Positions 7,013 through 60,820 of a stretch of DNA of 64,000 nt are shown here, piece after piece. This DNA comes from a virus (lineage: Duplodnaviria > Caudoviricetes). The notes under the pieces are model-generated. The model was given only the letters and a program-made list of their open reading frames with translations. It had not been told where the DNA came from and ran no database searches. Made by a program: the position numbers and the translations under genes. The DNA lies in the IMG/VR virus record IMGVR_UViG_3300007754_000008, positions 921 to 64,920 of that record; one strand, written 5' to 3'. Within the stretch, counting starts at the first letter, position 1; each line of letters begins with the position of its first letter.

Positions 7013-9177
7013 TGAAAATAGGACAATGGAAAATGGCTAAAGCTTGGGAATTGTCTCCCACTTTAAAACACGAACGTGGTGCGTGGAAAGCGTTTGTTGA
7101 TTTTGAAAAACAAATGGACAAGGCCCAAGATCCACGAACCGTGGACCAGGGACCACGGAACATGGCTGATGGTGGACGGATCGGGTATGCTGATAAAAAT
7201 GCCGGTAAATTAGTTAAACCTTATCCAGATCGAATTAAAACTTTAGCTGTCCCAGATGGGTACGTAACTGCAAAACAATTAGCTGAAGAGTTAGGTATTG
7301 CTAAAGAAACTTTAAAAAAATATAGACTTAAAAATTTACCAGTAGATAAATATCCTTTAAAAGGATTTATAAATGAAACTTTTAAACCTATCAGAGGACC
7401 AGGAAATTATACTTATTATTTAAAACCAACAGAAGCAATGTTGGATAATTTTTCTATTTTTAGAAATAAAACGACCATTAGTCGTGATCTTCTTAAAGAT
7501 GTAAAAACACTACATAATAGTGATTTAATGAAAAAGCTTAGAAAAAGTAAAAAGAAAGTACTTCCTACTTTAGAAGAGGTTGTAAAAGTTTTAGGTAAAG
7601 ACGTAAAATCTCATGGACGAGCGGCAAACGCCATGGCTACTTTATCAAAAATGTATAAAGGAGAAGAATATAAACTTTTAAAACTACCTAAGAACGAAAA
7701 GCTAGGAGATTTTATGTTTAAAGCATTGAGACAAGGTGGAAAACATAACCCTTATAAACAAGCTTTTTATCAGTTAGCAATTGGAGAAATAGATAAAACT
7801 TTAGGAAATGAAGTTGGAACTCTTAAAAATTTTAAAAGATATTTTAAAGATAACTTAACTAAATATTTAGGAAAAGGTCATGGTGTTAGTTTAAATGAAG
7901 TAGCAAGTATAAGTGGTATGGTGAGAAACGATATGGCGGCTTATGGAGCGTTTGTAGATTTAACTAAAACAAAAATTAATGATGGGCTGTTAGCAAATTT
8001 TCAAGGAATATTATCTAATTCTTTAAAAGAAATTGACAAGTTAAAAGGAAGAGAAAAAGTAGAGGCAATTAAAGCTTTTAATAAAACACATATACCAAGT
8101 TTTAAAAAACAAATAGCTGCTAAATATGGAGATGAGATTGCAGAAAGCATTCGTTTCACAGAAATAGTGCCGGGTACAAAAATTCAATCGAAACACTATG
8201 CCAAAGAAGATCTACTTACATGGAAAAAGAAACATAGTATTGATTTAAAAGCTCTTGCAAAACAAAAAGGTTATTATTTAGATGTTAAAGGTGCACGTCC
8301 TTTTACAGAATTTATAGAAGCAGGAAAGATAAGCAAAGCAGGGGCCTCAAAATTCCTAACCACTTTCTCAGACAGTTTCGACGCCTTAAGTCCACGATCT
8401 ATAGCGCAACTGTCAAAAATACACGGTTGTGGAAAAAAAGCAGAAGGTGGAAGTATCATGAGTTGTTTAAAGGAAAAGTTTAACGCTAAACCTGAAAAAT
8501 TTTTACAACGTTCCGCTCCTCTAGCTAAAGACAATGTAAATTTATTTAAATGGTTTAAAAATGGTAGAAAAATTGCAAGAGGAACAGGTATAGCTCTTGC
8601 ATGGGAAGCAGCGTTTGCCCCGATCATAGCAGGTTGGGGAGCACTTGAAGGACAAAGTGGTCAACGAATATTAAATGACATTGCTTATGGAATTCCATTT
8701 ATAGGTGAAACTGAAAAAGAAGAATGGAAGAGAGAATCGGGTGGTGATGAATTAGCTTATAAGATGAAACGAATGGGTGAATTAGAGCAAGAATTAGCGT
8801 ACCTTGATCAAGAAAGAGATGCTGCTATTAATAAACTAGCACATGTCCCGAAACTTCCTGGCCGTGAAGGAAAGGGTTACCAGCAACTTTTAATTGAAAG
8901 AGCTATAAAAGAAAAAGAATTAGAACTTCAAGGATTAAAAAACACTCCTGAATTTTATGAAGGTCCTGTTGGTTCTTATTATAATGAACCAGTTATACAA
9001 GATGCTTATGCCTTAGAACAACAGACTACAGCAAAAATAGCAGCTGATACAGCAGAACGAAAAAAAGCTGCTTTTGATTGGTTAAAAAAAAATAAAATTT
9101 ATGCTAATCAAAACTGGCAATCACAAGTTCAAGGAAGAGCACATGGAGGCATAATGGGGTTAAAAAAGAAATGGTAA
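7012..9177 (+). CDS. Second modular putative virion-internal protein with AxGG linkers and an HTH-like segment
   Basis: MADGGRIGYA, KAEGGSI and C-terminal RAHGGIMGL; VTAKQLAEELGIAKETLKKY. Confidence 0.75.
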   Translation: MKIGQWKMAKAWELSPTLKHERGAWKAFVDFEKQMDKAQDPRTVDQGPRNMADGGRIGYADKNAGKLVKPYPDRIKTLAVPDGYVTAKQLAEELGIAKETLKKYRLKNLPVDKYPLKGFINETFKPIRGPGNYTYYLKPTEAMLDNFSIFRNKTTISRDLLKDVKTLHNSDLMKKLRKSKKKVLPTLEEVVKVLGKDVKSHGRAANAMATLSKMYKGEEYKLLKLPKNEKLGDFMFKALRQGGKHNPYKQAFYQLAIGEIDKTLGNEVGTLKNFKRYFKDNLTKYLGKGHGVSLNEVASISGMVRNDMAAYGAFVDLTKTKINDGLLANFQGILSNSLKEIDKLKGREKVEAIKAFNKTHIPSFKKQIAAKYGDEIAESIRFTEIVPGTKIQSKHYAKEDLLTWKKKHSIDLKALAKQKGYYLDVKGARPFTEFIEAGKISKAGASKFLTTFSDSFDALSPRSIAQLSKIHGCGKKAEGGSIMSCLKEKFNAKPEKFLQRSAPLAKDNVNLFKWFKNGRKIARGTGIALAWEAAFAPIIAGWGALEGQSGQRILNDIAYGIPFIGETEKEEWKRESGGDELAYKMKRMGELEQELAYLDQERDAAINKLAHVPKLPGREGKGYQQLLIERAIKEKELELQGLKNTPEFYEGPVGSYYNEPVIQDAYALEQQTTAKIAADTAERKKAAFDWLKKNKIYANQNWQSQVQGRAHGGIMGLKKKW

Positions 9178-9320
9178 AAAACCCAACCTTAGTTAAAAAC
9201 ATGAAGCACGTTAAATGGAAGGAAATACCACCATTAAGAGGACCTAGTTCGCAGGGGTTGATTAAAGATAAAAAACAAGATAAGAAGAAGCAGGAGAATT
9301 TAAATGGCAGAAATAGATAA
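9171..9320 (+). CDS. Small basic protein (49 aa, ...EIPPLRGPSSQGL...)
   Basis: Not in ORF track; fills the gap before portal and overlaps both neighbours. Confidence 0.6.
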   Translation: MVKNPTLVKNMKHVKWKEIPPLRGPSSQGLIKDKKQDKKKQENLNGRNR

Positions 9321-59393: not shown

Positions 59394-60114
59394 TAAATAC
59401 AAGTATATAGAAGGAAAACAGATCACGGATCATGAATCAGGACATCGAATTTATGACATCATTGGTACTAGACTTCCATCTGTTACTACGATATTAGGGC
59501 GTACCAAAAATCAACAATTTTTAAAAGACTGGAAGGCCAAAGTTGGAGAACAAGAAGCGGAACGAATCAAAAATCTTAGTAGTAGGCGGGGAACATCCAT
59601 GCACAAGTTCATCGAGTCTCATGTATCGGGAATTGGTTACGATGATCTTACGCCAATCGGACAAGAGGCGAAGCCCATGGCCAAAAAAATTATTGAAGAA
59701 GGGTTACTCCCTGTGGAAGAGTATTACGGCTCGGAAGTCACGTTGCATTATCCTGGGTTATATGCTGGCAGTACTGACTTGGTATGTAATCATAACGGTT
59801 TAGATACTATTATTGATTTTAAGCAGTCAAATCGCCCGAAGAAATTAGAGTGGATTGAGGATTATTTTTTACAAATCGCCGCGTATTGTATGGCACATGA
59901 CTATGTTTATCAATCAGAAATTAGACAGGGTATTATAATGATCTGTACTCCTGACCTATATTACCAAGAATTCAAGTTTCAAGACGCTGATTTAAGGTCT
60001 TGGAAACATAAATGGTTGAAGAGATTAGATATGTATCACGAATTACAATTCGATGAGAAAGAACAAGTCACATTTGATATAAAGGAGTTTAAAAAACAAT
60101 TTGAAAAAGCCTAA
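59380..60114 (+). CDS. PD-(D/E)xK exonuclease (Cas4/MGME1-like)
   Basis: LPSVTTIL, RGTSMH, YAGSTD, IIDFK, Q.AAY. Confidence 0.88.
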   Translation: MKKSNKYKYIEGKQITDHESGHRIYDIIGTRLPSVTTILGRTKNQQFLKDWKAKVGEQEAERIKNLSSRRGTSMHKFIESHVSGIGYDDLTPIGQEAKPMAKKIIEEGLLPVEEYYGSEVTLHYPGLYAGSTDLVCNHNGLDTIIDFKQSNRPKKLEWIEDYFLQIAAYCMAHDYVYQSEIRQGIIMICTPDLYYQEFKFQDADLRSWKHKWLKRLDMYHELQFDEKEQVTFDIKEFKKQFEKA

Positions 60115-60820
60115 AGTATTTATAGCTATGCCTTGTTATGATATGATGAAGGTTGAAACATGTGTTTCCATCCTCAACACGTACGCAGTATTAGCTAAGT
60201 CTGGGGTTGAGTGTATATTTAAGTCGGTTAAATCTTCTCTAGTAACTCATGCAAGAAATTTATTAACTGCAGGATTCATGGCGTCTGATTATGATTATAT
60301 GTTATGTGTAGATGCTGATGTAGAGTTTTCTCATGAAACTGCCTTAAGAATGTTAGTGCCTGAAAAAGATATTGTATGTACTCCTTATAGATTAAAAGAA
60401 AATCCTTTAAAAACTAAATATCCTGTAGAACATATTGATCCTGATAATATTAAAATACTACCTTTTGATTTAGTGGCGTTAAAATCTGCTCCGGCTGGCT
60501 TAATGTTAATTAATAGATCTGTATTTAGAACGTTGATGGACAAGTATCCTGATAAAAAAATTGAATTTAATAAAGAACACCAAGATAAGATGGATAAAGA
60601 GGTAGGATATAAAGGTGCGATAGATAGATACATGTATAATTTTTGGGATACAAGCTTTAAGGATCATGAATGGAAAGGTGAAGATTTAGCCTTCTGTGAT
60701 TTGGCTCGAAAGTGTAATATTAAGATTTACGGGAATCTCGACTCATGGACCACGCATCATGGATCATGGGGCTTTACAGGCACGTTTGGAGATTCTTTAA
60801 AAAAGAAGGAGGATAAATGA
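60101..60820 (+). CDS. GT-A fold glycosyltransferase
   Basis: VFIAMP, ARN.L, VDAD (DxD), GLMLI.R, GED..FC; TTG start. Confidence 0.85.
   Translation: MKKPKVFIAMPCYDMMKVETCVSILNTYAVLAKSGVECIFKSVKSSLVTHARNLLTAGFMASDYDYMLCVDADVEFSHETALRMLVPEKDIVCTPYRLKENPLKTKYPVEHIDPDNIKILPFDLVALKSAPAGLMLINRSVFRTLMDKYPDKKIEFNKEHQDKMDKEVGYKGAIDRYMYNFWDTSFKDHEWKGEDLAFCDLARKCNIKIYGNLDSWTTHHGSWGFTGTFGDSLKKKEDK

Follow-up and report, generated by a model that had tools for sequence, protein, structure and literature searches.

The omega/ParB protein of plasmid pSM19035, which belongs to the ribbon-helix-helix (RHH) type, binds arrays of 7–10 contiguous 7-bp WATCACW repeats in direct or inverted orientation and requires at least two contiguous units, and at least four for full activity (PMC9499535). 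A comparable series of phased heptads, referred to here as tracks, is found in a stretch of 64,000 nucleotides from a virus of the Caudoviricetes (Duplodnaviria). This stretch, which is called the window throughout and whose numbering is used unless stated otherwise, represents bases 921–64920 of IMG/VR record IMGVR_UViG_3300007754_000008, a genome of 64,920 bp that is rated complete by CheckV. The tracks are built from in-register units with the consensus CAYGGAY, they lie mostly within genes, and three of them contain the same exact 15-mer, GACCACGGAACATGG. They are under purifying selection on nucleotides, at the cost of rare codons and amino-acid changes.

The likeness to the omega/ParB arrays lies in the contiguous and non-palindromic 7-bp units, in the presence of both direct and inverted arrangements and in the existence of several arrays per replicon. 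Some of the phage units, GGATCAC and GGATCAT, carry omega's ATCAC core or ATCAT. Unlike at the omega sites, however, the phage consensus is CAYGGAY and not WATCACW, most of the tracks reside inside coding sequence and not at promoters, and the strong tracks are co-oriented. Moreover, the RHH binder of the phage is only a candidate, and the mismatch-containing hairpins in which the unit recurs within the control region have no counterpart among the described omega sites. A second family of heptads in the control region, the GCTTGNN arrays found at promoters, is closer in position to these omega sites than are the CAYGGAY tracks.

A further phage-encoded system of short repeats is VIPR, which is composed of the Vipr RAMP protein and a vrRNA of 5-nt YNNGG repeats, with the protomers lining up along the repeats (bioRxiv 10.64898/2026.04.26.720920). 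The elements described here resemble VIPR in that a phage encodes short units in tandem, some of whose positions are constant and others variable, at intergenic locations beside small genes. In contrast to VIPR, the period is 7 and not 5 and the unit sequences differ, whereas the VIPR repeats are RNA guides with a 3-nt target code. No RAMP gene was recognised in Pfam and PHROG scans, although the neighbouring genes were not searched by structure, and the preprint contains no mention of GP88, PF17338, Pelagibacter or a heptamer. The resemblance is treated as an analogy only.

Functional DNA words within genes are exemplified by Chi, a short single word that is found inside genes regardless of frame, is co-oriented along the replicon and is frequent in 'self' DNA. 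The phage tracks differ from Chi in that they are phased arrays and in that their tandem form is not enriched in the host family. The pac site of phage P1 contains TGATCA/G hexamers inside pacA, with GATC-containing units 7 bp apart in part of the site, and phage T7 has arrays of a 7-base repeat beside its terminal repeats. These are likewise repeated short words, in their case for DNA maturation, and some of them are also located inside a coding gene, but they represent single loci at the packaging start with irregular spacing, whereas about eight dispersed tracks are present here. Heptad-array recognition (omega) and functional DNA words in genes (Chi and P1 pac) are known kinds of system. 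What is new is the combination of phased tracks in several essential virus genes, their maintenance by rare codons across a large and abundant clade, and the sharing of the unit with control-region hairpins. Term searches of the main papers on this phage group, supplements aside, brought up neither tandem repeats nor hairpins, palindromes, heptamers or terminal repeats.

The track-bearing group is among the most abundant phages of the ocean, and short mapped elements in essential genes (helicase, virion protein and exonuclease) provide an experimental handle on the organisation, replication or packaging of phage DNA. Codon-usage analyses and those of the ratio of non-synonymous to synonymous substitution (dN/dS) in these genomes include islands that are constrained for non-protein reasons. 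Recognition of heptad arrays, so far the property of a single plasmid regulator, may be far more widespread.

The 15-mer and the heptad register

A preliminary description of the window had reported three exact copies of a 15-mer embedded in heptad runs, and this was borne out. All three copies of GACCACGGAACATGG are on the plus strand (Table 1), and the complete record of 64,920 bp holds 3 forward and 0 reverse copies. When up to two mismatches are permitted there are six matches, again all on the plus strand, as against 0.08 expected by chance (100 shuffles, the largest value being 1). Among 24 listed 15-mers, GACCACGGAACATGG is the sole dispersed one with at least three copies that is not of low complexity. 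Every heptad run that had been listed is present, and each copy of GACCACGGAACATGG lies inside an in-register run of 3–9 heptads. Runs at 36860, 59410 and 37699 come in addition to that list, as does a heptad-rich control region made up of 63000–64000 and the 920 bases to the left of the window.

The register of the units can be seen in the spacing of CA.GG, which occurs 213 times in the record. The pairs number 11 at a lag of 7, 7 at a lag of 14 and 3 at a lag of 21, with no other lag from 1 to 28 exceeding 3. Single units are not enriched (CAYGGA 42 versus 34.9 ± 6.2). A strict two-unit seed, defined as CA.GG..CA.GG, is found 11 times on the plus strand and twice on the minus strand, where a third-order Markov model gives 0.6 and 0.1, respectively (200 simulations). 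Comparison with codon-shuffled genomes, the check that had been proposed, leads to the same result: 300 synonymous-codon shuffles, which preserve each protein and the codon usage gene by gene, give 1.56 seeds (maximum 7) on the plus strand and 0.03 (maximum 1) on the minus strand. Likewise, eight plus-strand runs score at least 16/20 over four units, against a maximum of 4 in 100 synonymous shuffles. Tandem Repeats Finder reports period-7 repeats at 45291–45313 and 60743–60769.

Almost every position of the 7-bp unit is specified, with position 3 favouring Y. The extent of the element was assessed with 33 seeds pooled from this phage and five relatives, for which the flanking units took no part in seed choice. 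C at position 1 and G at positions 4–5 are far over background in three units upstream and one unit downstream of the seeds, with C1 present in 23, 17 and 20 of the 33 (5 expected) and G4 in 19, 18 and 14. The element therefore comprises 5–7 heptads and is strongest at its 3' end.

The runs had also been described as oriented. The strong in-gene runs are indeed all on the plus strand, but the bias is within the composition expectation of about 6:1, and a strict orientation is suggestive only. Twelve of the 13 strict seeds run in the sense of the surrounding transcription arm. That the orientation follows the genome and not the gene is suggested by a sole case, the helicase, which is an inverted gene that keeps the plus orientation via rare codons.

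Table 1. Heptad tracks, arrays and hairpins of the phage (window coordinates unless stated)
Feature	Position	Strand	Description
Site 1	7119..7181	+	7–9 heptads (CAAGGCC CAAGATC CACGAAC CGTGGAC CAGGGAC CACGGAA CATGGCT ...); 721-aa gene 7012-9177; 15-mer copy 1 (7151-7165)
GroES-like gene track	14549..14569	+	three heptads (CATGGCC CATGGTG CAAGGTC); gene 14249-14701
Virion site	32729..32770	+	six heptads ending CACGGAT CATGGGT; virion structural gene 31529-33697, aa 401-414
Site 2	34652..34693	+	six heptads (CGGGAGC CTTGGAC CACGGAA CATGGAA CAAGGAC CTGGTAG); 182-aa gene 34398-34946; 15-mer copy 2 (34663-34677)
36860 track	36860..36887	+	four weaker heptads (CAAGAAG CAGGAAT CATGGAC CTTGGTG); gene 34946-37147
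Site 3	45287..45314	+	CACGGAA CATGGAC CATGGAT; antisense in SNF2 helicase gene 44952-46382(-); 15-mer copy 3 (45291-45305)
DNA polymerase A track	52112..52146	+	five heptads ending CACGGAT CAGGGGC; 5' end of gene 52043-54034
58720 track	58720..58747	+	four heptads (CACGGCT AACGCAC CATGGAC CATTGAG); score 16/20
Exonuclease track	59410..59444	+	AACAGAT CACGGAT CATGAAT CAGGACA; codons 11-22 of PD-(D/E)XK exonuclease gene 59380-60114
60730 track	60730..60771	+	six heptads (CGGGAAT CTCGACT CATGGAC CACGCAT CATGGAT CATGGGG); near 3' end of gene 60101-60820
Two-unit matches	63427..63438 (CATGGATCAAGG), 63586-63597 (CATGGGTCACGG)	-	GP88-like gene 63221-63820(-); weak, sole minus-strand seeds
GCTTGNN arrays	63027-63094, 63132-63170, 63704-63720, 63867-63899, 63938-63960	+	constant GCTTG and two variable bases; second heptad family, related to but distinct from CAYGGAY; strand as given for 63027..63170
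Three hairpins	4-70, 159-224, 328-378 of L065 (the 920 bases left of the window)		conserved 14-bp base, A.A mismatch, variable loops

Selection on nucleotides

The preliminary description had maintained that protein coding cannot explain the motif and had named synonymous-site conservation in relatives as a means of checking this. Both points hold. Rare codons are kept at orthologous sites among 71 helicase and 80 virion sequences, and where amino acids change they do so in ways that keep the heptad, as with CGG to GGG (Arg to Gly). Since the runs fall in several frames, with one of them antisense, and since rare codons are kept in relatives, the runs are considered to be functional nucleic-acid elements and not protein motifs.

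The helicase set consists of 71 genes with 75–92% protein identity. Codons 357–364, which carry the track, form the fourth-lowest window of synonymous entropy, and the three lower ones overlap in one AT-rich stretch. Within this window Val363 is GTG in 46/47 sequences (background 14%), Ser362 is TCC in 60/69 (6%), Pro360 is CCG in 50/66 (8%), Val357 is GTC in 27/39 (4%) and Gly359 is GGT in 67/70 (49%). More distant members of the family that lack the track read GEDSIV at this place with no change in length, and the track must hence have arisen by substitution and not by insertion.

In the virion gene, for which 80 sequences of 58–89% identity were compared, codons 406–413 have the top conserved-rare-codon score across all 722 codons. 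Arg411 is encoded by CGG in 36/43 sequences against a background of 0.4%, Leu406 by CTG in 55/78 (0.9%), Ile412 by ATC in 68/80 (6.6%) and Ala407 by GCC in 42/77 (6.3%). The arginine codons at the site are CGG (36) and AGG (1), both of which are compatible with CANGG, whereas AGA provides 77% of the background arginine. A more distant subclade reads CACAGATCAGAGG (SQIRG), where the 7-nucleotide periodicity is kept and both units are altered alike; CACGGAT and CACAGAT are the consensus variants of the heptad in this gene. Over the site the helicase and virion alignments are ungapped blocks of equal length, apart from one 74-nt row among 70 helicase relatives.

At site 2 the comparison is made over 18/19 related loci that were gathered by protein and not by the 15-mer. 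The encoded peptides vary (GPRNM, GPGNM, GPQPM, GPRSS, RPGDM and others) and the heptads persist. The arginine codons are CGG in 11 cases, CGA in one and AGA in none, and the replacement of Arg by Gly via CGG to GGG preserves CANGG. At the 5' end of the exonuclease gene a run is present at the same place in all five of genomes G001–G005, with a peptide and a length that differ (by 2 codons).

Not all of the tracks are held in this way. The track in the GroES-like gene is partially retained in relatives, and the protein motif GPWCK may account for much of this. The track at 36860 is not retained in G001 or G004 and is therefore either lineage-specific or the result of chance, whilst the DNA polymerase A track was not found at that place in 8 other genomes compared and is particular to this phage. 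On this basis the sites are seen to turn over. None of the 7 in-gene sites that were folded has a hairpin partner arm, and their z-scores range from -2.1 to +0.4.

The three copies of the 15-mer have different histories. The exact 15-mer is found in 61 IMG/VR stretches with one match each, and 18 of these align to this phage, 9 at site 1, 8 at site 2 and 1 in the control region. For eight of those at site 1 the sole alignable part is an island of 44–87 nt around the track (78–91% identity), and the ninth does not differ from the window. At site 2 the homology shared with several relatives (L024, L030, L047 and L052) breaks exactly at the 3' end of the 15-mer, from 34678 onward. With homology ending at the 15-mer at site 2 and only the track alignable at site 1, the tracks coincide with mosaic junctions. 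Since relatives align at sites 1 and 2, copies 1 and 2 are old, conserved versions of the track. At the helicase track relatives read GACCACGGATCCCGGACCATGG, and in this phage a change of Gly to Cys yields the 15-mer. Copy 3 is the phage's own variant of the conserved helicase track, and its identity with the other two copies could be due to gene conversion or to convergence on a preferred sequence.

Distribution across phages and hosts

The closest named phages are Pelagibacter phage HTVC027P (63% identity for the helicase and 66% for the portal), 023Pt_psg01 and HTVC023P, and the phage can therefore be assigned to the HTVC023P-type pelagiphages. Closer relatives are found among IMG/VR contigs, with at least 594 for the helicase and at least 599 for the virion protein. 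Five related genomes each contain 5–8 strict seeds, compared with 0–2 for a reversed control pattern. Plus-strand runs that score at least 16 were counted in six genomes; the counts are 8, 5, 3, 4, 5 and 6, and the highest values reached in 100 synonymous shuffles of each are 4, 3, 1, 2, 2 and 2. The named phages have few or no strict seeds (0 in HTVC027P, 0 in 023Pt_psg01 and 1 in HTVC023P), and in HTVC027P the helicase and virion tracks were not found.

The freshwater phage DSL-LC04 is more distant (helicase identity 52%, GC content 51%) and contains 19 seeds versus 2 for the controls. Nine heptads form a non-coding array upstream of its terL gene, and further runs are present in the gene that intervenes between terL and the portal gene, which is the place of site 1. 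From these comparisons the tracks are seen to recur at orthologous places in a large HTVC023P-type clade and in the distant DSL-LC04. The array upstream of terL belongs to a GC-rich non-coding stretch of 270 bp (L391, record 14560–14830) that is full of CCACGGN heptads, nine of them contiguous at 14573–14635, on the strand opposite to the genes.

In 31 host-family genomes, which together amount to about 32 Mb, seeds occur at about 5 per Mb, which is the control level, as against 13 in the 65 kb of the phage. A host-wide signal was rejected on these grounds.

Hairpins and GCTTGNN arrays of the control region

In the hairpins at the left end of the record the arms, CTGATCCCAGRYCC and GGRYCAGGGATCAG, each contain two CAYGGAY-type heptads, and the folding z-score is -6.8. 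Exact copies of the right arm are present at more than 121 places in IMG/VR. Seventy IMG/VR hairpins with GGRYCAGGGATCAG arms have 61 different loops of 24–90 nt, and the A.A mismatch is retained in 66 of the 70. The first four positions of the inner stem are paired in 100, 97, 74 and 66% of cases, against 79, 46, 42 and 30% for mismatched arms, and the inner stem shows AT/TA/GC/CG exchanges indicative of covariation. The hairpins are real structures. No Rfam family reached its gathering score in the window and the left end. One contig, L222, contains six such hairpins in a row beside GCTTGAT arrays.

The variable dinucleotides of the GCTTGNN arrays are low in complexity (AA, TG, CA, AG and CG), for which reason a reading of the arrays as VIPR-like guides was set aside. 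In HTVC027P and G001 the arrays run up to the -35 box (TTGACA) of early promoters that point leftward, and on either side they border a conserved hairpin located between convergent genes; in G001 CANGG units are located directly 5' of them on the same strand. The arrays look like operator or UP-type arrays. In the window a hairpin, AGAACCTGAACTAGGTTCT (63098–63120), lies between two GCTTGNN arrays and between convergent genes, and it is identical, letter for letter, in HTVC027P (16578–16597). This hairpin could serve as a bidirectional terminator or as a different protein site. The open reading frame (ORF) at 62729–63115 encodes a small PD-(D/E)XK-like protein (motif PDLL...ELK, with a PHROG match to Holliday-junction resolvase). 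Its apparent C-terminus is a GCTTGNN array read through, and the true stop is probably earlier, or else the tail is meaningless.

Proposed readers of the tracks

The suggestion that the heptads are cooperative binding sites for a phage protein has fared well in one respect, as a selected signal at the level of DNA or RNA is borne out; binding by a protein remains the best reading, though by inference only. The explanation that is favoured here, if tentatively, is that the tracks are bound cooperatively in duplex DNA with one protein unit per 7 bp, by analogy with omega/ParB. It is ranked first because the hairpins and the in-gene tracks have the same duplex sequence, so that one duplex reader could serve both forms. 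The tracks would be cis-acting series of 3–9 contiguous 7-bp units, about 20–60 bp in length, written into the duplex phage DNA, and a phage-encoded sequence-specific protein would read them cooperatively, with one subunit or dimer per heptad. The reader would recognise duplex DNA, and the stem formed by the two arms of a hairpin would rebuild the same duplex site. The approximately eight in-gene tracks could then provide secondary loading sites, scattered along the genome, for a process that involves the genome as a whole and would most likely be the packaging or organisation of replicated DNA, starting at the control region beside terS.

A number of observations weigh against cooperative duplex binding. 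The binder was sought but not identified, and phylogenetic profiling for genes that track-bearing genomes have and HTVC027P and HTVC023P lack found none that tracks the motif, the only hits being paralogues of 2OG-oxygenase and two small ORFs that DSL-LC04 does not have. The candidate is an RHH-like ORF at 57481–57654, which encodes a conserved protein of 57 amino acids with 1170 homologues and, in a low-confidence model, a beta-alpha-alpha look. It has no match in Pfam and no sequence match in the PDB, its AlphaFold 2 (AF2) model is poor (predicted local distance difference test score of 63, with two helices after an extended N-terminus), no heptads are found upstream of it, and it is also present in HTVC027P, a phage without in-gene tracks. 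Moreover, the A.A mismatch of the hairpins and the covariation of the inner stem point to a single-stranded form that a plain duplex model does not need. The units within a run, and all the strong in-gene runs, are co-directional, unlike omega sites, the in-gene tracks do not overlap promoters, and the units are not WATCACW.

Some of these features would be better accommodated if the tracks were read in single-stranded nucleic acid, either in rightward transcripts or in a plus strand exposed by replication, by a ring-shaped or helical oligomer, each subunit of which would accept a single 7-nt unit, with about seven units needed to fill a ring. Such ring-type reading has its models in TRAP, which recognises spaced triplets, and in HutP, which recognises UAG at intervals of 7 nt. 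The runs of 5–7 units (about 49 nt) would fit a ring, the units of a run are all direct repeats with 12 of the 13 strict seeds in the sense of transcription, and the conserved mismatch and covariation of the hairpins imply that the single-stranded form matters there. A single-strand or RNA reader draws its weight from this mismatch, from the uniform unit direction and from the length of about seven units. Yet the helicase track runs antisense to the gene that holds it and would require a read-through antisense RNA, the heptads are paired in the hairpins and partnerless in the genes so that one reader must accept both, and no RNA-binding ring protein was recognised among the annotated proteins of the window; on balance a single-strand reader is rather unlikely. 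Less likely again is a genome-wide, strand-polar 'self' code that would be read by a translocating machine, be it a phage helicase-nuclease or the packaging motor with TerS, for phage/host discrimination or to set the direction of processing, with the hairpins as master loading sites, in the manner of a virus-encoded Chi or KOPS. In its Chi-like form the proposal is that a helicase-nuclease, perhaps the UvrD-like helicase (50117–51820) together with the PD-(D/E)XK protein (59380–60114), is tamed when it encounters a track from the 3' side, such that phage DNA is spared and recombined and host DNA is degraded. The phage does encode both a UvrD-type helicase and a nuclease, the strong in-gene runs are all on one strand, seeds in the host family are at the control level, and the loss of homology after the 15-mer at site 2, like the conservation of the track alone at site 1, is what would be seen at recombination junctions. 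However, linker junctions of this kind are also expected from domain shuffling, Chi sites are single 5–8-mers and not phased arrays, single CAYGGA units are not in excess, the strand bias can be accounted for by composition, and HTVC027P has the same helicase and nuclease genes without the tracks. These taming marks are accordingly viewed as improbable, and Chi of the host type is unlikely because the 31 host-family genomes show no enrichment.

Two further explanations dispense with a reader of nucleic acid. The tracks could be a mutational by-product without function, generated by slippage, by gene conversion between copies or by a tiny mobile element that inserts heptad arrays. The identity of the three 15-mers suggests copying, and the period-7 calls of Tandem Repeats Finder also fit. 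But there is no change in length relative to track-less relatives and no hairpin partner, the units differ among themselves, and the sites persist with their rare codons while the proteins diverge to 60% identity, where drift would erase them. The by-product explanation is very improbable and largely refuted by the rare-codon conservation. A protein motif of the form [PS]-R-x-M, as in GPRNM, which might be the site where a maturation protease cuts virion proteins, would explain copies 1 and 2 and the virion site, with the third 15-mer left to chance. Copies 1 and 2 do share a frame in which both read GPRNM, the virion site gives SRIMG in that register, and all three proteins belong to the structural part of the genome. 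The site 2 peptide nevertheless varies (GPGNM, GPQPM, GPRSS, RPGDM) where the heptads stay, arginine is CGG or CGA in 12/12 cases at site 2 and CGG in 36/43 at the virion site in spite of the prevalence of AGA, the other tracks are in other frames or antisense, and a third exact 15-mer would arise by chance with a probability of about 1e-4 (our own estimate). A protein motif is consequently the least credible of the explanations and can hardly be entertained.

Several other candidates were tried and rejected. A G-quadruplex does not require the conserved CA, and in the distant subclade the middle unit no longer has its GG. Promoters do not fit the inconsistent distances to the next gene start, and the in-gene tracks are not upstream of gene starts. 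Internal translation starts are not supported, as the ATGs fall in different frames. In-frame mobile palindromic elements (RPE-like) would bring an insertion relative to track-less homologues and a partner arm, neither of which is found. A simple slippage tandem repeat is at odds with units that differ and with alignments of equal length, other than the 2-codon difference at the exonuclease site.

Genomic context and other features

The window has a GC content of about 36%, and almost all of its genes are on the plus strand. The packaging and head genes that could be recognised are those for TerL, an SU10-type portal with its adaptor, the capsid, a GroES-like protein and Hsp20. Those for replication and DNA metabolism comprise the SNF2 helicase on the minus strand, an AEP primase, the UvrD-like helicase, DNA polymerase A and the PD-(D/E)XK exonuclease, and near the right end genes for TerS (61508–62092) and the GP88-like protein are found, together with a 69-aa ORF (62494–62703). 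In the Hsp20 gene, the 126 bp at 44755–44880 match Pelagibacter myophage HTVC008M with 83% DNA identity, and the protein is 72% identical to one from a Pelagibacterales metagenome-assembled genome, which fits a SAR11 host.

Strong sigma-70-like promoters with the arrangement TTGACA-N16/17-TATA(T/A)A, often with CCTATA, are present at 57425–57460 and at 845–875 of L065. One such promoter drives the RHH-like ORF, which overlaps an ORF for a CxxC...CxxC zinc ribbon at 57632–57838. Repeats of other kinds are found in the gene at 22070–23200, which contains a 33-bp unit repeated 4.8 times (23028–23185) and a 63-bp unit repeated 2.4 times (22457–22608), and two big glycine-rich proteins (24379–26295 and 27406–29187) are rich in GGT-type repeats. 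Finally, ATTTACCCCTCGCAG occurs three times inside 180 bp adjoining the terS end of the genome, once on the plus strand (61061–61075) and twice on the minus strand (61138–61152 and 61222–61236), and this triplet of one direct and two inverted copies resembles an operator or a packaging-related site.

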